A stretch of DNA of 32,971 bases from IMG/VR virus record IMGVR_UViG_2563366843_000007; one strand, given 5' to 3'. The notes under the pieces are model-generated. The model did no database searches. It was not told the DNA's origin and saw nothing but the letters and a program-made list of their open reading frames with translations. This document shows, one piece after another, positions 1-11,707 of the stretch. The position numbers and the translations under genes are program-made. The first letter of the stretch is position 1. Each line of letters begins with the position of its first letter. Source of the DNA: a virus. Lineage: Duplodnaviria > Heunggongvirae > Uroviricota > Caudoviricetes.

Positions 1-1131
1 TCAAATGACCAGTTTTTTCCACTCCTTGCCGCGTGCATCGTTGTAAATATCGGTCATTTTTTGATTCGAATGACCCAGCAAAATTTTGGTATCAATTCCC
101 TGTTCTCTGAACAATCTTTCTGATAAAGATCTCTGCTCATGGAAAGAGGGTGGGGTGCCATTAGCACGCCAGTTGTAATCCACAGAATCCCGCGCTTTTT
201 TAAATGCAACAGTTAACGTTGCTGGCTTAACCATCCCGCCGCGCTTAGCTGTCCCTTTCGCGTGATGATGGTGCAATAGCCACGGACTAAGAACGCAATC
301 GCGACAGGATGACACCACATCATCCAGGGTGAGATTTAATTTATCGCAACGCAGAGCCAGAGGGATGGCAATCCGGGTTCCTGTTTTTTGCTGTTCGACA
401 TGAAGATAACCATCCCGGATATCCGAAAACTGCATTTTGCAAATATCTGAAAGGCGCTGGCCTGTCACCAGTGCCAGCAGCATGCCGCGCTGTAAAAAGT
501 AACCATCCTTTTCCGCTGCGTTATAAATCATCATCCACTCATCAAAAGTCAGTCGCTGTCTTGATATCCGCACCTGCGGTTTTTTTGCCGATTCTGCAGG
601 GTTAAAGCCTGGCGGGACATCGCCCGTTTGCTGAGCTTCCCGGAAAACATCGATCAGTACCTTCCTGAAAATTTGTCCCATTCTGTTATGTCCTCTGGCC
701 TTGTACTCTTCCAGCACCGATACCACATCTTTTACGGTGATGGCATCTAACGGTCTGGTGCCAAAACGTTCATCAAATACCCTGAGAGGGGCCGCTTTTT
801 GTTTCAGCGTGTTGAGTTTGATTTCTCCGTTTTCATATCTTTCCTGTTGAATTTTTCTGTAATTATTCAGAAAAATGGAAACAGTTGATGAACCGCCGGT
901 ATCATTAATAATTTTCTCCTGCAGACTGAGCATTTGTTCCATTTGCTGCCTGGCAAGACGGCTGTTCGCTTCTGCTGCAATAGTTTCTGCCAGTTTCTGG
1001 TCAATACTGCCGAGACCGTGATTTTTGCCTGTTATGGGATGCCTGTAACGCCAGTAAACTTTGTTATTTCTTTTGTCAAAATATGGAGACAATCCCGGAA
1101 CATCGGTTTTATATTTTCGCGGGCGCGCCAT
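1..1131 (-). CDS. int: Phage integrase, tyrosine site-specific recombinase
   Basis: 376-aa ORF ending exactly at the window edge; tyrosine-recombinase-like C-terminal region (HHHH...R...LLGHS...Y motif context); immediately downstream of an overlapping excisionase-like gene. Confidence 0.9.
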   Translation of the reverse strand: MARPRKYKTDVPGLSPYFDKRNNKVYWRYRHPITGKNHGLGSIDQKLAETIAAEANSRLARQQMEQMLSLQEKIINDTGGSSTVSIFLNNYRKIQQERYENGEIKLNTLKQKAAPLRVFDERFGTRPLDAITVKDVVSVLEEYKARGHNRMGQIFRKVLIDVFREAQQTGDVPPGFNPAESAKKPQVRISRQRLTFDEWMMIYNAAEKDGYFLQRGMLLALVTGQRLSDICKMQFSDIRDGYLHVEQQKTGTRIAIPLALRCDKLNLTLDDVVSSCRDCVLSPWLLHHHHAKGTAKRGGMVKPATLTVAFKKARDSVDYNWRANGTPPSFHEQRSLSERLFREQGIDTKILLGHSNQKMTDIYNDARGKEWKKLVI

Positions 1132-1421: not shown

Positions 1422-3902
1422 TTAAAAATCAGCCTGACTCGGGATCAGTTTTTGTATCGTAGCTGTAACGTATTTTGCCTGGTGACGGGCGTCATCCAGC
1501 GCATTGTGGCGCACGCCTTCGAATGGAATAACGGTTCTGGCATCAAAGTCGATTGTTTTTCCCAGCTCAACGATTGTGCGTACATCGCGATCGTTGTAGT
1601 AGCGCCACGGGCAGGGGATGTCCAGGCGTTCGTATGAGGTGCGCAAAATTGCGTTATCGAAAGTTGCACCATTACCCCATACCTGAACTAATTTTTCATC
1701 TGAGTATTCGTTGATGAACTCCCGAAACCGCGAAAGGGCATCCTTCAGTTTTACCTGGTCTGTTAAAATGGCAGCTCTGGCTTCACTGGACTGCTTCAGC
1801 CACCATTCGATGGTTCCACCGTCAGGAACAGCCCCTGTATTCATTGCGTCAGTCAGACTGATAACGATATAAAATACTGGCCCGATTTCCCCTGTTTGTG
1901 GGTCGAAGAAAACCGCACCAATAACCACGATGGGCGCATTGGTGTTGGTTCCCATTGTTTCAAGGTCGATCATCAGGTGGTACCACACTCTGTTGGTGGA
2001 TGTGATAACGTGATGACCGTTCACCGCAATTAAGGGATCTGCCGTCTCGCCAGTTTCATTATCGCTGGCGTGGTCCTGAGCGCTGCCAGCATTCTCCTTT
2101 TGTGGATGTTCAGCGCCTTCCATTTCCTCCGGATCATTTTCCTGAACTTCAACCTGATTCTCTTCATCGAATGTTTCCTGGTATGTTGCGTCGCCCATCA
2201 CCGCACTACAATCAGGGCAGTTGCCGCCACCGATCTGACCGCAGGCTGTGCAGACTTTTTCCGCTTCCTGTTGCGCTACCGGTTCGGATTGTTTCGTTTC
2301 TGGCTCGTTTTGTAACGCATTTTGGCTGTTTTGTTCCGCTTTCTGGTTGTTCTGTTCCGTTTCTTGCTGGTTCTGGTTCACGGAATCGCGGGTTTCAATC
2401 CCCTTCACCCATTTCGGATCATTCGGGTCGCTAATCCCTGCAACAAATTCTCCGCGAGAGGCAGCAAGCAGTTCATTAGCGTCAGGCTGGCTGATATTGG
2501 CTGCCTGCATAATTTTGTTTACTTCGTCAGCGGTAACTTTTACCGGCTCTGGTTGTGCGGTCGTGTCAGATGCACCAGTATTTTGTTGTGAGCCTGAGTA
2601 TGTACCGTTTTTGCGGGCAAAATATTCTTCTTTCGTGATTTCAGTAGCCCCTGCAGCCAGCGCCTTATTCAGACCAGAAAGTTTGTTTGCACGACCATAT
2701 TTTTCGCCATCCTTATCGGTGAAAAGGAAGTAGAACGGCCCCTCACGCTCTACAGATGGTTCAGTTTCCAGCGTGCTTTCATTTTTTTGGGTATCAGATA
2801 CTTCAGTTTCCACTGCATCAGTTTGTGCTGCTGACGGCTGGAGAATATCAGCAGTGTTCTGGTCTGTTTCTTCATCCTCAAACACGCCCTTTGTCGCCAG
2901 GTATTCAGTGATGTATTTGTTCAGTGCTACGGGATCTTTGTGAATGTCGATCGGACGCTCACGGACAAGGCCAAAAATAGTCTGACGGTCGTAGCGAACG
3001 GCATCGAGTTGTTTGCGCATTGATGCGGAAATGCGCTTCCAGTCTTCGCGATCTTTGTCGATAACTTCATTTTTTGCCCAGCGATGGATGCTGCCGTCAA
3101 TGTTTCCGGCATTAATATCGCCAGGCCACAGAGCGTAGGCCAGTTCTTCATCCAGCGTTTTCCATGTCTGCTTGTATTCGCGACGAATGGCGGCAGTGGC
3201 GGGGTTGATTTTTCCTGCTGAGTTTTCAGTGTGCTGCCGGTTGACTCTGGCGCGGGCAAGATCAACAACAGACGTGTATTTCCCGGTTTCTTTGCGTTCG
3301 GCTTCGCGACGTTTTTTCCAGGTGCGTAATTCTGTCTGGATCTCAGGCCATTTTGCACCCGGCTTACATTTATGTTTAACCCACCCGATGGCGAGCAGCT
3401 TTAGTTCTGAATACATGACGTTAACTTCAGGCATTTTCATCAATGCCTCAACGATATGCCCGTCGAATGTTGCCATGTCCTCCTGCAACAATTCCTGTGC
3501 ACTAATCACCATATCAACAGTGATGTTTTCACATGTACCGAACTTAACCAGGACCGCGTTCTGTACTTCAAGGGACAGCTTGTCAAAATTGACGTTCATC
3601 GGATCGGATTCTGGTTCGACCGGGACAAAGGAAGCGCCTTCCTCATCCCAGCGGTTTTCCAGCATATATTCGGTATCCCAGGAGTCGATGGCAGGGCGGG
3701 GCATGCCGGGTTTATCCTCGCAGACAAGAAATTTATAAGCGCAGTCCTGAGCAGCCGGATATTGCTCCAGGAATTGCCAGGTAAATTTGGCACGGGCGCG
3801 GCGTTCGTCACCGGCTTCAATGGCAGTGGCTACAGCCACTGCACCTTCTTCCTTTATTGCCTGTTCGTCCGGAATGGCGGCGCAAATAAAGACTTTACTC
3901 AT
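1422..3902 (-). CDS. Exodeoxyribonuclease VIII-like protein with C-terminal DnaQ-like 3'-5' exonuclease domain
   Basis: 826-aa ORF. C-terminal ~190 aa has DEDD-type exonuclease signatures (MIDLETMG..., ...[12 protein letters not shown]..., H...ALDDARHQA). Central Cys4 motif [15 protein letters not shown] and a Q/N/E-rich low-complexity segment. Confidence 0.7.
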
Positions 3903-3981
3903 TTTGTTTTAACCTCATTACAGATTTAAGGGTGAACAAATCCCTGCCATTGCTGGCATATAAAATGAAACCGGATATTAA

Positions 3982-4185
3982 TTACGGCGCTGTTTTAAGT
4001 CCTGCCGGGATTTCGTTATTATCCATGTGAATAACTTTATCGACCGGATAGCAGTTACCGGGAATTTTTTGTTCTGCTGCGGCAGCCATGCATTCTTTCA
4101 TTGAACCGTAAATGTCAATAACCATGTCAACAGGTTCGCCAGTATTAAGAAAAACAGTCAGAGTGAGGGCAATAGCAGTATTCAT
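3982..4185 (-). CDS. Small protein, YdfD-like (DUF1482-like)
   Basis: 67-aa ORF starting MNTAIAL with hydrophobic N-terminus; its ATG overlaps the dicB stop (ATGA), as for ydfD in the Qin dicB operon. Confidence 0.5.
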   Translation of the reverse strand: MNTAIALTLTVFLNTGEPVDMVIDIYGSMKECMAAAAEQKIPGNCYPVDKVIHMDNNEIPAGLKTAP

Positions 4186-4370
4186 TGCCAGTATCCTTTT
4201 TGCATCGGGCGTAAACGTGCCAGCATTGAAAGAATGCATATTTTATTTAATAGCTCCCGTTCGTGTTTTCTTTTGTTAATGGCCTCTTCAGTAAATACAG
4301 GATTACTGATAGTGACACCAATTTCAAAACAACCTTCAGACGTATTAACGTTTGGTAATAACGTTTTCAT
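4182..4370 (-). CDS. dicB: Cell division inhibitor DicB
   Basis: 62-aa ORF MKTLLPNVNTSEGCFEIGVTISNPVFTEE... matching my recollection of E. coli DicB in length and N-terminal sequence; GAGGG Shine-Dalgarno 8 nt upstream; lies 169 bp downstream of DicF. Confidence 0.7.
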   Translation of the reverse strand: MKTLLPNVNTSEGCFEIGVTISNPVFTEEAINKRKHERELLNKICILSMLARLRPMQKGYWQ

Positions 4371-4539
4371 TATCGCGCCCTCAACAATGAGTTTTGTGAT
4401 GCGGTGCCTGGTGCCTCCAGGTGACGTTAACCAGTTAACAATTAACGCCGGATACAGAGAATCCACCCATAACACTGTTTTTGGTTTTAACTGTTCCGCG
4501 TGCGCTCAGCCGCATTCACCGCATCACAAAATTCACTTT

Positions 4540-4597
4540 AAAAAGGGCGGCAGAGCAGTCACGGAGTAAAACTGATACCGCCAAACGTCACCAGAAA
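4540..4597 (-). ncRNA. dicF: DicF small regulatory RNA (ftsZ-targeting sRNA) with intrinsic terminator
   Basis: Minus-strand sequence UUUCUGGUGACGUUUGGCGGUAUCAGUUUUACUCCGUGACUGCUCUGCCGCCCUUUUU matches the DicF sRNA as I recall it, including the GGCGG/CCGCC terminator stem and U-tail; sits directly upstream of dicB. Confidence 0.8.
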
Positions 4598-4931
4598 ATT
4601 GATAACAGAGGGCGTTGCAGCGGGGTTGTCACTTAAGCGTATGGTCAACCTGACAACCCGGTGTCCTCAACGGGGGAAGGAATAACCCCGCCATACTTAC
4701 CGCCGCGCCATTTCGCGGATTGCCACAACCGGAAGCGCACGGTCGACGAAAATTTAACGACAGGCTATCTATGAACCAGCTACCTCGCCGTGCGCTTTCG
4801 CGTTATGGTCTGACTTTTCAGGGAAATATCCTTTCAGTAAACTGTCAGTGCCGGATGTTCACCCGTGTCCGGCGCACGCACTCCACCTCACCCGTGGAGA
4901 ACTCCTTAATTACCAACCCTCAGGAGGGTGA

Positions 4932-5165
4932 ATGTTAAAATCAACTCTTATTGCTAAATGCCTTTATCAAAATCGCATGGTAAGCAGCATTTCAATAGGC
5001 GAGTCTGCAGTTAAAAGTATTTTCGAAGAGTACTTCCCCGGGCATGATTTTAATAAATGGAATACCAAATTACCGCCAGCAGTTTCAACGCGTATTCTGA
5101 AAGCAACTGAAAGAGCAAGTACAATTCGCGTTAACTATTTCATTAAAGATTTGTGGGATCTTTGA
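4932..5165 (+). CDS. Hypothetical protein (77 aa), AT-rich, no recognisable motif
   Basis: ATG preceded by AGGAGGG at 5-nt spacing; ~38% GC; convergent with and overlapping the 3' end of the 135-aa minus-strand gene by 23 bp. Could instead be antisense to that gene's 3' UTR. Confidence 0.4.
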   Translation: MLKSTLIAKCLYQNRMVSSISIGESAVKSIFEEYFPGHDFNKWNTKLPPAVSTRILKATERASTIRVNYFIKDLWDL

Positions 5166-5550
5166 CATCCACAGAGCCTAAAGTATGTGCATATGGATGT
5201 GCTATTGTGCGCCCTCGCAGATTTGCATCATTTTCTAAATTCACTGAACGAAACAGGGCATCAACAAGGCTCTGTACAATGCAAAGGCAATCGAAGACTG
5301 TCGCTGTTTCTGTTTTGATTGATGAAAGAACATGGCCATTCACGCAAACAGAAATTACCCGTTCATTAACATCGCTTTCCTGCTTTTGATTATCAGAACC
5401 ATATAGCCCAGAAAAAGCATTGCGCACATTACGAACCATATTATCGATGGTTTCTTTTTTGGTGTATGCCGGGTCAATTTTCACCAGACTATCACCGAGA
5501 GTCGTTGCAGCAATTGTCTGGATTTCTTTTGGTAAATCTTTAAATTCCAT
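5143..5550 (-). CDS. Hypothetical protein (135 aa), AT-rich moron gene
   Basis: ATG with GAGG 6 nt upstream, immediately downstream of the ydfC-like gene; ~40% GC against a markedly more GC-rich left flank; no recognisable family motif. Confidence 0.55.
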   Translation of the reverse strand: MEFKDLPKEIQTIAATTLGDSLVKIDPAYTKKETIDNMVRNVRNAFSGLYGSDNQKQESDVNERVISVCVNGHVLSSIKTETATVFDCLCIVQSLVDALFRSVNLENDANLRGRTIAHPYAHTLGSVDVKDPTNL

Positions 5551-5572
5551 TATTAGCCTCGTTGGTTAGCTA

Positions 5573-5791
5573 TTAACGTGGGTATGTAATCATTCTGGCA
5601 ATGCTTAATGCCGCTGCTTTTTCCAGCCTGGTGATATCCTGCTCCAGAGCGGACAGATTTTCAGCCTGCTTAGCCCTGGCTTCATTGGCCCATTTCAGAT
5701 CCTGCGCTGCATTAATTTTCTGGCGCATCCACTCATAAAGTTCATCATCGGTATAGTCTGGCGCGATGATTACGGGTTCTCGTTTCTGCAT
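5573..5791 (-). CDS. YdfC-like protein
   Basis: 72-aa ORF in the position and of the size of Qin ydfC, upstream of dicF in the minus-strand operon. Confidence 0.55.
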   Translation of the reverse strand: MQKREPVIIAPDYTDDELYEWMRQKINAAQDLKWANEARAKQAENLSALEQDITRLEKAAALSIARMITYPR

Positions 5792-5811
5792 ACTGATTCC
5801 TCGCGGTGCTG

Positions 5812-5949
5812 TTTCGCTTATCAGCCGTTAGATTTTGCCGAACTGGAAAGCGCCTGTTTAAATTCGCTGAAGCTGAGAGTTTCTTCGCCTTCGGCAAGGC
5901 CTTCGAAGTATTCTTCGTAAGCCTTTTTCATGATTGTGTCGAAATCCAT
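5812..5949 (-). CDS. YdfB-like small protein (45 aa)
   Basis: Short ORF MDFDTIMKKAYEEYFEGLAEGEE... (below the 60-aa ORF track cutoff), starting 1 nt after the ydfA-like stop; tightly packed operon context. Confidence 0.4.
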
Positions 5950-5950
5950 A

Positions 5951-6106
5951 TCACTCACCTGAGTTTCTTTCCAGCCAGCGACGCGCGCCAGATTCGGTTT
6001 TAAACGTTTTGCTTTTGGTATACGTCATCGCGGTGAACGTACCGTCCTGGTTGGGGAACACGCCACATACCAGAGATTCGCTGTTGCCAAGATCGATAGT
6101 ATCCAT
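5951..6106 (-). CDS. YdfA-like small protein (51 aa)
   Basis: Internal ATG (MDTIDLG...) with GAGGT Shine-Dalgarno 5 nt upstream gives a 51-aa product, the size of Qin YdfA; the longest ORF extends to 6187. Confidence 0.5.
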   Translation of the reverse strand: MDTIDLGNSESLVCGVFPNQDGTFTAMTYTKSKTFKTESGARRWLERNSGE

Positions 6107-6287
6107 GCTGACCTCATTTCCCCTTAACGCCGGGGTAGCGGAACAAAAACCTGCTGCATAGTTATTAAAGTTGAACCCTGCCGTCATGTTCTTACGCCTC
6201 GGGCTGGCTACTTAACCCCTGACCACTGCCTGGTAACTCGAAGTATTGCCCTGCATTCTGTGGGGCGGGGTGGGTTGGTATGTTGTT

Positions 6288-6307
6288 AAGGTAACAAGAG
6301 TTACCTT
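6288..6307. promoter_or_regulatory. Candidate OL-type operator (AAGGTAAC-N4-GTTACCTT) in the promoter region of the ydfA-dicB operon
   Basis: 8-bp inverted-repeat arms around a 4-bp spacer, sharing the GTAAC-N4-GTTAC core with the two sites between the repressor and cro-like genes. Confidence 0.5.
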
Positions 6308-6345
6308 TAGAGTCAATACAATGTTGCAAAAGGTACATTTGAGGG

Positions 6346-6373
6346 CATAAAAAACCCGCAATGAATGCGGGTT
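6346..6373 (-). terminator. Rho-independent terminator downstream of the repressor gene
   Basis: Minus-strand hairpin ACCCGCA-UUCAU-UGCGGGU followed by a U-run, 6 bp after the repressor stop. Confidence 0.6.
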
Positions 6374-6378
6374 CTGAC

Positions 6379-7053
6379 TCAGTCTAAGTATTGATGTATT
6401 TGTGAAACTTTACCTTTAATGGTGTAACCACCATTCAGTTCGATGGGTTTGTAAAGCGGATTCAGTGACAACAGATAGATGTTTGGTCCGTCAATCGCAA
6501 CTTTTTTTAGTGTTACGTTTGGCGTTCCTTCCAATTGGATTAAGATTATTTTTCCCACCAGTTCTCTAATGTTACTTGAGCATGGTGTGATCAGCACGGT
6601 AGATCCGTCGGGGATGGTTGGGAGGCCGTTAGAGTTTGTCATCGCATCTCCCTCAACATGCAATAAAAAAGAGTTTTCAGCGGTTTTTGTCATGACATCA
6701 ACCCAATTCTTAATACCAGGAATCTCGGTTACTGGACAACTCATATCCCAATAACCAGCCTGTTCCCACGTTAAAACGGGCAACCGGGCGATGTTGTCAC
6801 TAATGTAAAGGTACTGATTCAGACGCAGATCATCGGTTTTATCGTGACCGTCCTTTCCATAAAGAATCCATTCAGGAGATTTGGAAAGCAATTTTGACAG
6901 TAGATGTAAATTCTCACCGTCAGGTTTTGAAGAGCCATTTTCCCATTTTGTTACGGATACACGAGATATGCCGATTGCTTTCGCAACCTGCTGTTGGGTT
7001 AATCCTACGTCTTTTCGACGATTCCGAATACGTTCGCTGATAGTGTTTTTCAT
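6379..7053 (-). CDS. CI/C2-type prophage repressor (N-terminal HTH, C-terminal S24 LexA-like peptidase)
   Basis: N-terminus MKNTISERIRNRRKDVGLTQQQVAKAIGISRVSVTKWENG... is an XRE-type HTH resembling P22 C2; the C-terminal half is assigned as S24 self-cleaving peptidase fold from overall resemblance to C2/CI (catalytic Ser/Lys not individually identified). Start at 7053 keeps both OR operators intergenic; the longest ORF extends to 7152 (TTG). Confidence 0.85.
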   Translation of the reverse strand: MKNTISERIRNRRKDVGLTQQQVAKAIGISRVSVTKWENGSSKPDGENLHLLSKLLSKSPEWILYGKDGHDKTDDLRLNQYLYISDNIARLPVLTWEQAGYWDMSCPVTEIPGIKNWVDVMTKTAENSFLLHVEGDAMTNSNGLPTIPDGSTVLITPCSSNIRELVGKIILIQLEGTPNVTLKKVAIDGPNIYLLSLNPLYKPIELNGGYTIKGKVSQIHQYLD

Positions 7054-7054
7054 G

Positions 7055-7115
7055 TAACCAATGTTACTACCAAGTGATGTTGCTATGGTTGACATCGATA
7101 TGTAACTATTGTTAC
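7055..7115. promoter_or_regulatory. OR operator/promoter region with two GTAAC-N4-GTTAC operators (7055-7068, 7102-7115)
   Basis: GTAACCAATGTTAC and GTAACTATTGTTAC, 47 bp apart, between the divergent repressor and cro-like genes; a TTGACA hexamer at 7089-7094 lies between them. Confidence 0.55.
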
Positions 7116-11340: not shown

Positions 11341-11551
11341 AAACGGTTTGCGGGAAAAGGAGAGTTAAGTAGAATTGCAGCGGGTGCTTGAGGCTATCTG
11401 TCTCAGGCATGAACACCAAAAGGCAGATAGAGAAAAGCCCCAGTTAACATTACGCGTCCGGCAAGACGCTTAACATTAATCTGAGGCTCAATCTATGAAC
11501 GGCAAATCTAGGTTAGCCTCTTACGTGCCGAAAGGCAAGGAGAAGCAGGCT
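11341..11551. promoter_or_regulatory. hok mRNA leader region (possible mok-like upstream start and antisense Sok-like RNA)
   Basis: Structured leader upstream of hok; an in-frame upstream ATG at 11495 with GAGG; inverted repeat CTATCTG...CAGATAG at 11395-11439. Confidence 0.35.
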
Positions 11552-11707
11552 ATGAAGCAGCAAAAGGCGATGTTAATCGCCCTGATCGTCATCTGTTTAA
11601 CCGTCATAGTGACGGCACTGGTAACGAGGAAAGACCTCTGCGAGGTACGAATCCGAACCGGCCAGACGGAGGTCGCTGTCTTCACAGCTTACGAACCTGA
11701 GGAGTAA
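11552..11707 (+). CDS. hokD: Hok/Gef-family type I toxin (HokD/RelF-like)
   Basis: 51-aa product MKQQKAMLIALIVICLTVIVTALVTRKDLCEVRIRTGQTEVAVFTAYEPEE, typical Hok transmembrane and periplasmic domains, essentially as I recall RelF/HokD; AAGGAG Shine-Dalgarno. Confidence 0.8.
   Translation: MKQQKAMLIALIVICLTVIVTALVTRKDLCEVRIRTGQTEVAVFTAYEPEE

Follow-up and report, generated by a model that had tools for sequence, protein, structure and literature searches.

A dicBF operon in the early-left region of an intact-looking lambdoid prophage of Escherichia coli, with a two-gene cassette between ydfC and DicF

Which operon lies beyond the repressor gene of this prophage, and how far does it agree with the dicB operon of the Qin prophage of E. 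coli K-12? The window (the whole stretch of 32,971 nucleotides that was analysed) carries on its minus strand the order ydfA-ydfB-ydfC-(cassette)-dicF-dicB-ydfD-ydfE-type exonuclease (Table 1). The locus is very probably the dicBF operon, serving as the early-left operon (equivalent to PL) of a lambdoid E. coli prophage that looks intact; its content, the bacterial division inhibitors DicF and DicB, is already known. The gene order is that of the dicBF (Qin) type, with two extra genes after ydfC, one co-oriented (ORF135) and one antisense (ORF77), and both order and spacing match the MG1655 annotation. The closest genomes carry the same operon genes in their RefSeq annotation, and of the 5426 complete E. 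coli genomes searched about 4770 gave a match to the operon. All elements of the original prediction, a Qin-type dicB operon with DicF, were recovered on the minus strand at, or a few bases away from, the predicted positions; against the limit of ~85% identity set there for DicF, the RNA proved 100% identical, and the proteins, for which homology to DicB and the Ydf proteins had been expected, are 70–99% identical to those of K-12.

Table 1. Positions of the features of the operon, its cassette and the adjoining immunity region within the window.
Feature	Position	Strand	Evidence or remarks
ydfE-type gene, full length, 826 aa	1422..3902	-	C-terminal Rv2179c-like 3'-5' exonuclease; PF16473, E 1e-67
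ydfD homologue, 67 aa, DUF1482	3982..4185	-	PF07358, 71.8 bits; 44/63 identical to K-12 YdfD
dicB, 62 aa, cell-division inhibitor	4182..4370	-	PF05358, NF049927; 55/62 identical to K-12 DicB
DicF-dicB spacer, 174 nt	4371..4544	-	170/174 identical to K-12, equal length
DicF terminator U-tract	4540..4544	-	directly 3' of DicF; identical to K-12
DicF sRNA (53 nt)	4545..4597	-	Rfam RF00039; base 4597 from K-12 annotated 5' end
Untranslated DicF leader (precursor region)	4598..4918	-	K-12 RNase III/RNase E processing determinants by similarity
Two-gene cassette, 634 bp	4919..5552	.	alignment vs K-12 Qin and strain 52F4, both without cassette
ORF77, 77-aa hypothetical protein, antisense to operon	4932..5165	+	phrog_10348, E 1e-47
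ORF135, hypothetical protein	5143..5550	-	phrog_1363, E 4e-46
ydfC homologue, 72 aa	5573..5791	-	71/72 identical to K-12 YdfC; phrog_1744
ydfB homologue, 42 aa from ATG	5821..5949	-	40/42 identical to K-12 YdfB; phrog_2061
ydfA homologue, 51 aa, DUF1391	5951..6106	-	PF07151, 96.9 bits, E 5e-28; 48/51 identical to K-12 YdfA
Candidate early-left (dicBp/PL-like) promoter	6288..6316	-	-35 TTGACT 6311..6316; weak -10 TACCTT 6288..6293
Hairpin + U-run directly after repressor stop	6349..6373	-	read from sequence AACCCGCAttcaTGCGGGTTTTTT
Prophage repressor, 238 aa	6379..7095	-	P22 C2/DicA-like HTH + C-terminal S24 (LexA/cI-like); Pfam HTH_3, Peptidase_S24

The ydf names, which had been given by position and size, turned out to be those of true K-12 homologues, with Pfam or NCBIfam matches where such models exist. 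The sizes proposed for the ydfA-like (51 aa) and ydfC-like (72 aa) genes were confirmed. The ydfB-like gene is also real; the 45 aa ascribed to it correspond to a mechanical GTG open reading frame from 5958, and the ATG start, which gives 42 aa, agrees with the K-12 annotation and with the RefSeq ORF in relatives. The 62-aa dicB product is matched over residues 1–62 of 62 by PF05358 (124.8 bits, cut-off 27) and NF049927 (128.6 bits, cut-off 100). As foreseen, ydfD is ATGA-coupled to dicB, its start visibly overlapping the dicB stop; YdfD runs on here for 4 aa past the K-12 C-terminus, owing to a deletion of one nucleotide. DicB differs from its K-12 counterpart in 7 of 62 residues and YdfD in 19 of 63, and DicB may be presumed to block the Z ring here as well, the activity of YdfD being likewise assumed. 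The genes named for the operon stood, and beyond ydfD it extends into an exonuclease gene of the ydfE type, full length here. The N-terminal 255 aa of its product are 87% identical to the product of the K-12 ydfE pseudogene, the form in which this gene survives in K-12.

The RF00039 covariance model matched 4545..4596(-) over model positions 1–52 of 52 with 76.7 bits (E 1.9e-15; gathering score 48 bits), and over this match DicF is identical to K-12 dicF (52/52). DicF had been placed at 4540–4597, the extra five bases at one end being the terminator U-tract. It sits in the long untranslated stretch from ydfC to dicB and ends at its own stem-loop and U-run, visible as the stem GGCGG...CCGCC followed by CUUUUU. 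The distance between DicF and dicB fits the E. coli locus, as had been claimed, but with the 3' end of DicF as annotated the spacer measures 174 nt; the figure of 169 bp resulted from setting the end of DicF at 4540. The leader block 4597..4918 (322 nt) is 97.8% identical (315/322) to the K-12 ydfC-dicF leader. In K-12, DicF is processed by RNase III/RNase E (PMC10448788, PMC5069750); no internal promoter for DicF was found in the K-12 work, and DicF therefore depends on upstream read-through. The predicted fold of the 211-nt DicF precursor was only mildly more stable than those of shuffled sequences (z -2.3) and thus uninformative.

Immediately upstream of the operon lies a repressor/Cro pair. 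Just downstream of the repressor gene, a palindromic operator GTAAC-N4-GTTAC (6291..6304) overlaps the candidate promoter of Table 1. Within the window this palindrome is present at three sites and no more (6291, 7054 and 7102, with 0.29 expected by chance). All lie in the immunity region, the two other copies being located at the repressor/cro boundary. The assignment of the promoter is that of a candidate and its control by the repressor is putative; the consensus promoter scan did not list this site, the -10 of which is weak. The hairpin after the repressor stop is likely a terminator separating the repressor gene from the operon promoter, and it was not flagged in the consensus scan.

The HTH of the repressor is 54% identical to that of DicA, and the likeness to DicA is limited to this part. 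In the alignment with lambda cI, VEGDAMT stands opposite VEGNSMT, i.e. an Ala occupies the position of the catalytic Ser149. Among the S24 self-cleavage features, the Ala-Gly (EQAGYW) and the Lys (TLKKV) are present and the catalytic Ser is absent, so that the set required in LexA/lambda cI-type proteins (Ser-Lys dyad plus Ala-Gly site) is incomplete. The usual SOS route to derepression is therefore doubtful. The same Ala-for-Ser allele is found in two other strains; related repressors of Serratia, Klebsiella and Yersinia have Ser at that position. No similarity to a Rem-type antirepressor was found beside hokD, its position in Qin.

Following the mechanism worked out for DicF and DicB in K-12 (PMC5069750, PMC10448788), the repressor would hold the early-left promoter off in the lysogen, and derepression would give rise to one polycistronic transcript. 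RNase III and RNase E would cut DicF from the long untranslated stretch, with its own terminator providing the 3' end, and DicF with Hfq would repress ftsZ and other mRNAs, host targets that are encoded outside the window. Read-through would yield DicB (an indirect block of the Z ring) and YdfD (a lysis protein), and division arrest with filamentation would follow early in induction. That derepression should filament the host, as originally proposed, is a reasonable expectation from the K-12 experiments reported in the same two papers.

Does the operon belong to a functional phage or to a relic? The window contains genes for an integrase, Q antiterminator, lysis/lysozyme proteins, terminase, portal, capsid and tape measure, with no obvious disruption. 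It starts within the integrase gene, which places its own integration junction outside the view, and because it ends inside the tail region the completeness of the prophage can be judged only in part. The prophage of strain 52F4, 99.6% identical and without the cassette, adjoins ompW. The operon is of the Qin type, as had been stated, but the prophage is not Qin itself: the DicA/DicC immunity region is absent, this prophage and K-12 have unrelated DNA upstream of ydfA, and the 52F4 relative lies at ompW, in contrast to the Qin end at ynfP/rspB (MG1655). In our view the locus is unlikely to be, as Qin is in K-12, a cryptic prophage in decay, whose operon was kept only as a host-domesticated module. 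Such an origin would agree with the location of the K-12 operon in a defective prophage, with a repressor devoid of the catalytic serine and with a 2016 survey, in which neither DicF nor DicB was seen in the phage genomes sequenced. It is at odds with the undisrupted appearance of the genes listed above, as well as of the immunity and full-length exonuclease genes, and with the INPHARED database, where the operon occurs in records of phages and induced prophages, e.g. phage Tritos, vB_EcoS-689R5 and the PPompW prophages.

An insertion between ydfC and DicF had been noticed earlier; it is real and could be delimited exactly as the 634 bp at 4919..5552, with the joints GCTAA|TAATGG ... CCTGAG|GGTTGG. 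Among 5426 complete E. coli genomes the cassette was found in 646 when at least 80% coverage was required, and these include O157:H7; in E. coli this module would lie inside the DicF precursor. That it is a transposable element, or else DNA inserted recently and at random with no function of its own, is highly improbable. The clean presence/absence difference between otherwise 99.6%-identical prophages would suit such an origin; however, no transposase, terminal inverted repeats or target duplication were found at the joints, and a transposon origin was rejected on these grounds. ORF135 and ORF77, moreover, both belong to conserved protein families, and the convergent pair of ORF77 and its partner keeps its early-left position in Serratia, Dickeya, Xenorhabdus, Yersinia and Klebsiella.

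ORF77 is preceded by the Shine-Dalgarno sequence GGAGGG, 5 nt before its ATG, and converges with ORF135, their 3' ends overlapping by 23 bp. Its family has a fixed length of 77 aa in Serratia, Dickeya, Klebsiella, Xenorhabdus, Yersinia, Morganella and Salmonella. In ORF135, the N-terminal ~55 aa are a module common to many proteins with other C-termini (this part alone matches 4 further PHROGs), and the C-terminal ~75 aa form a 'partner' domain conserved beside ORF77. ORF77 and the partner domain occur as a convergent pair in early-left operons of prophages of at least six enterobacterial genera, and their overlap is 23 bp in relatives and 26 bp in Yersinia. The AF2 model of ORF77 is all-helical (pLDDT 97), and no fold relative was found for it in the PDB; that of ORF135 (pLDDT 62 overall, 74–84 in the partner domain) gave no match in the fold search. 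Neither protein matched Pfam, NCBIfam or PADLOC, all PHROGs matched are unnamed, and a literature search by accession retrieved nothing on either. One database source names ORF77 a 'dGTP triphosphohydrolase', which is impossible for a 77-aa protein and was treated as an annotation error. A derivation of the K-12-type DicF leader from the sequence upstream of ORF77 was also considered and dismissed, the best similarity in Serratia being a 29-nt hairpin-like stretch that was equalled in 16 of 300 shuffles (not significant).

How would the cassette affect the operon? It is quite unlikely that it splits it, with early-left transcription ending or being blocked within ORF135/ORF77 by convergent collision or by RNase III at the 23-bp overlap, and DicF/dicB silent or driven from elsewhere. 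Ahead of the DicF leader there are indeed 634 additional bases, among them a convergent gene that is well conserved and has a strong Shine-Dalgarno sequence, and the need for read-through from upstream, seen in K-12, would make DicF sensitive to them. On the other hand, the scan of the minus strand from ydfC to DicF revealed no terminator-like site in the cassette or elsewhere in that stretch, so that the cassette should make the DicF precursor longer but not abolish it. ORF77 has no sigma-70 consensus promoter upstream in the window, in Serratia or in Klebsiella, and no CII-type TTGC-N6-TTGC box was seen near it. Furthermore, the leader, DicF, spacer and dicB of the cassette-bearing loci (646 genomes) remain 92–100% identical to K-12, a pattern different from that of decay after silencing. 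Read-through into DicF might nevertheless be reduced if ORF77 is transcribed against the operon.

We tentatively suggest, as one possibility, that the cassette is a conserved two-gene module of temperate enterobacterial phages with a function expressed in the lysogen (e.g. exclusion of other phages, or toxin-like), which might be shut down or neutralised on induction, once the partner protein and the early-left transcript are made. Antisense transcription of the module might, in addition, adjust how much DicF and DicB is produced. It is the convergent, antisense, 3'-overlapping arrangement that hints at expression in the lysogen.

The main finding is no new biology, DicF, DicB and YdfD having been under study for decades. 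Cassette-bearing versions of the operon are already public, with their genes annotated as hypothetical, and the cassette, common and unstudied, is the sole part out of the ordinary. The locus is nonetheless a clean example of dicBF in its native context, a lambdoid prophage that is apparently complete and has dicBF as its early-left operon. This context supports the view of dicBF as the module with which the phage arrests division, as opposed to an invention of the host. The prophages of 52F4 (without the cassette) and of the present strain (with it) constitute a near-isogenic pair for the role of ORF135 and ORF77 and for their effects on the expression of DicF and DicB.

The closest known system is the K-12 Qin dicBF operon (b1571-b1577, ydfA-ydfB-ydfC-dicF-dicB-ydfD-ydfE), which shares the genes, their order and the ATGA coupling of dicB and ydfD, with DicF identical at 52/52 positions, the leader at 97.8%, a 174-nt spacer of the same length, YdfA/B/C 94–99% and DicB 89% identical. 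It differs in the absence of the 634-bp cassette after ydfC, in unrelated sequence beyond about 35 nt upstream of ydfA, in a 135-aa DicA in place of the 238-aa S24-like repressor, and in a ydfE truncated by IS2 that is full length here; identity falls to 70% in YdfD, which has 4 more aa here, and the surrounding prophage looks intact here, its 52F4 relative being at ompW and not at the Qin site.

Two kinds of lambdoid prophage from pathogenic E. coli, the PPompW prophages (LC567822 and relatives, PMC8112680) and the prophage of O157:H7 PV15-279, carry the contiguous ydfC-ORF135-ORF77-dicF-dicB at ~95% identity. In PV15-279, ydfD and the 2.5-kb exonuclease gene come next, and the cassette genes are hypothetical proteins in RefSeq; the near-identical 52F4 relative is integrated next to ompW. 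Both differ at the ydfA/ydfB end and in the immunity region, the PPompW match covering only query positions 397–1929, and in O157:H7 the first ~30 aa of ORF135 are different.

SieB/Esc of lambda and P22 combine an exclusion gene of the early-left region with a product that gives self-protection. With them the cassette may share only its proposed logic, a lysogen product and an early-left counter-product; there is no homology, and instead of converging, SieB and Esc are read in one orientation and one frame. Phage lambda Kil and Rac prophage KilR are small, repressor-controlled early-left products that block the FtsZ ring on derepression. DicF and DicB would resemble them in action, as early-left inhibitors of host division, with no sequence relationship claimed, and differ from them in what would be a double block, an sRNA acting on ftsZ mRNA together with DicB, which prevents FtsZ polymerisation indirectly.

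The original prediction placed a complete Qin-type dicB operon with the DicF sRNA on the minus strand; this layout was confirmed and the interpretation supported. The Rfam scan detected a single DicF across the window, as a full-length match to RF00039 (76.7 bits versus a gathering score of 48; E-value 1.9e-15). Per-feature identities were scored on a three-way alignment of the window, E. coli K-12 MG1655 and strain CV839-06. The homology of the small proteins was borne out by their identities to the K-12 counterparts and by curated models, i.e. PF07151 (YdfA), PF05358 and NF049927 (DicB) and PF07358 (YdfD). YdfB and YdfC gave PHROG matches, Pfam having no model for either, and RefSeq labels ydfB and ydfC in the closest genomes. 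Some predicted details were revised: ydfB encodes 42 aa from an ATG at 5949, the 45 aa stemming from a mechanical GTG ORF, while the DicF end set at 4540 is 4545 in the K-12 annotation, so the spacing to dicB, although K-12-like, is 174 nt with annotated ends instead of 169 bp. Divergence from K-12 is concentrated in the 3' end of dicB and most of ydfD (76% nucleotide identity in ydfD versus 92–100% elsewhere), which points to a mosaic joint inside dicB. YdfD (67 aa) is four residues longer (…AGLKTAP) because of a 1-nt deletion near the K-12 ydfD stop.

Coordinates of the dicBF operon, its cassette and neighbouring features, with identities to K-12
Feature	Position	Strand	Identity to K-12	Remarks
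ORF with integrase domains	1..1131			after the ydfE-type gene
ydfE-type gene	1422..3902	minus		826 aa
dicBF operon	3982..6187	minus
YdfD			44/63
YdfD extension	3982..3996	minus
DicB			55/62
DicF-dicB spacer			170/174	same length
dicF	4545..4597	minus	52/52	Rfam match 4545..4596
DicF leader retained in window			315/322
Hairpin upstream of ORF77	4848..4875	plus
Cassette	4919..5552			634 bp
ORF77	4932..5165	plus		GGAGGG ribosome-binding site
ORF135/ORF77 overlap	5143..5165
ORF135	5143..5550	minus
ORF135 N-terminal module	5386..5550	minus
YdfC			71/72
YdfB			40/42
YdfA			48/51
Candidate early-left promoter palindrome core	6291..6304
-35 TTGACT	6311..6316
Hairpin and U-run	6349..6373
Repressor	6379..7095	minus		238 aa
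Repressor/cro boundary palindrome cores	7054..7067, 7102..7115
sok (Rfam)	11382..11557	plus		112 bits
ORF at hok/sok	11495..11707

The predicted insertion proved to be an exactly delimited cassette, absent from both K-12 and the 52F4 prophage, a near-identical relative, and alignments against these two revealed no repeats at its joints (...GCTAA and GGTTGG...). It carries two convergent hypothetical genes, ORF135 on the operon strand and ORF77 antisense to it, whose 3' ends share 23 bp. This overlap codes for both C-termini (…IKDLWDL-stop and …VKDPTNL-stop) and includes the short inverted repeat AAAGAT-N7-ATCTTT. At a coverage of at least 80%, the cassette is present in 646 of 5426 complete E. 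coli genomes (O157:H7 included), in the inspected cases always in the ydfC-dicF interval; the entire 2.5-kb arrangement was found in 122 genomes.

ORF77 represents a strongly conserved family of fixed length, with members in Serratia, Dickeya, Klebsiella, Xenorhabdus, Yersinia, Morganella and Salmonella. In all ten loci inspected, from five other genera, it lies antisense within the early-left operon, with a cI-like repressor one or two genes away, and shares 23 bp (26 bp in Yersinia) with the 3' end of a convergent gene. The 77–79-aa partners checked in Serratia and Dickeya share 34–41% identity with the C-terminal half of ORF135, and the wider partner family comprises 77–86-aa proteins, including those of Klebsiella, Citrobacter and other genera. 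ORF135 begins with a separate, portable module of ~55 residues (MEFKDLPKEIQ...NVRNAFSGLY), which in prophage proteins of E. coli and Salmonella encoded at the equivalent operon position (P0042, P0044, P0045, P0047, P0051 and locus L004, 3001..3390) is joined to no fewer than five unrelated C-terminal regions. Some partners, Citrobacter ones among them (P0113 and P0138-P0140, P0138 being from Citrobacter freundii), have an N-terminal ClpX-type C4 zinc finger (PF06689) instead, a fusion that may hint at a link to ClpX-dependent proteolysis. A 201-aa ORF135 variant (P0004, P0029) diverges precisely at the start of the ORF77 overlap (SVDAKNNTLQ... versus SVDVKDPTNL-stop), continuing into another domain, so that these prophages seem to have something else in place of ORF77.

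Neither cassette protein matched Pfam, NCBIfam or PADLOC. The predicted model of ORF77, of very high confidence (pLDDT 97), has five helices and found no relative in a PDB fold search; that of ORF135 was weak and uninformative. A search upstream of ORF77 revealed no recognisable promoter. A hairpin, GCCGG(N)-12 nt-(N')CCGGC, with a compensatory-looking change, occurs in the window and in L008 (~3930..3959), about equally far upstream of ORF77 in E. coli and Serratia; the similarity is not significant (16/300 shuffles). A literature search found no study of the ORF77/partner module, which is widespread, conserved in arrangement and the sole part of the locus beyond known biology. We consider it rather unlikely that the cassette functions as a lysogen/induction switch, which might also modulate DicF/DicB output.

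Upstream of the operon are the repressor gene, which shares its strand, and a P22-Cro-like gene in divergent orientation. Immediately 3' of the repressor stop codon there is a hairpin with a U-run, then a -35 and a weak -10, overlapped by the perfect palindrome AAGGTAAC-N4-GTTACCTT. Its core, GTAAC-N4-GTTAC, has exactly three copies in the 33 kb (0.29 expected by chance), all within the immunity region. These palindromes are probably operators, and we infer that the one at the candidate operon promoter is the OL equivalent; a consensus scan of the window did not call this promoter. In alignment with lambda cI, the repressor S24 domain (LexA/cI-type) retains the Ala-Gly cleavage site and the catalytic Lys, and has Ala at the position of the nucleophile Ser149 (VEGDAMT opposite VEGNSMT), making RecA-stimulated self-cleavage doubtful and suggesting a prophage repressor without it, a caveat for the derepression assumed in the original prediction. 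CV839-06 and 52F4 have this allele too; related repressors of Serratia, Klebsiella and Yersinia have Ser.

Following K-12, in which DicB is the main toxic product (PMC5069750, PMC10448788), the repressor would hold the operon promoter off, and derepression would yield a polycistronic RNA from which RNase III and RNase E would free 190-nt and 53-nt DicF species. DicF would then repress ftsZ and other mRNAs, DicB would block FtsZ polymerisation indirectly and YdfD would act as a lysis protein. Downstream of the cassette every K-12 processing determinant is preserved, and a scan found no terminator-like site on the operon strand inside the cassette; we therefore expect production of DicF and DicB, with the precursor lengthened by 634 nt. 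Operon expression, DicF processing, target pairing and filamentation are thereby predicted by homology.

The dicBF operon is textbook material and the main finding is already known: it matches ~4770 of 5426 complete E. coli genomes, and as many as four copies of dicF are present in EHEC strains (PMC7873438). A 2016 survey detected neither DicF nor DicB in phage genomes; in the current phage collection 60 records match, among them phage Tritos, in which DicF is annotated, and induced prophages.

Past ydfD, the operon continues with a gene whose product has a long acidic, Q/E-rich middle region and a C-terminal Rv2179c-like 3'-5' exo(ribo)nuclease domain; its first 255 residues are 87% identical to the K-12 ydfE product. 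In K-12, ydfE survives only as an IS2-truncated pseudogene, whereas the window copy is full-length. To the right of the repressor and the Cro-like gene come a YdaT-like gene, a replication gene, a hok/sok type I toxin-antitoxin, a DUF968 gene and a Q-type antiterminator, and further on lysozyme, large terminase, portal, capsid and tape measure genes. This content, from integrase to tape measure, indicates an intact-looking lambdoid prophage with dicBF as its early-left operon. The prophage is not Qin. DNA similarity to K-12 begins only ~35 nt before ydfA, and the repressor has the HTH alone in common with DicA (54% identity). Qin likewise has hokD, annotated at the hok position in the 52F4 prophage, but in the window neither relBE nor a Rem homologue adjoins it, and a search for a counterpart of this Qin antirepressor there found none. 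Prophages located at ompW ('PPompW') are known from pathogenic E. coli (PMC8112680), and their records match the dicBF region of the window. The 52F4 prophage, 99.6% identical over the first 12 kb, adjoins ompW, whereas Qin ends at ynfP/rspB.
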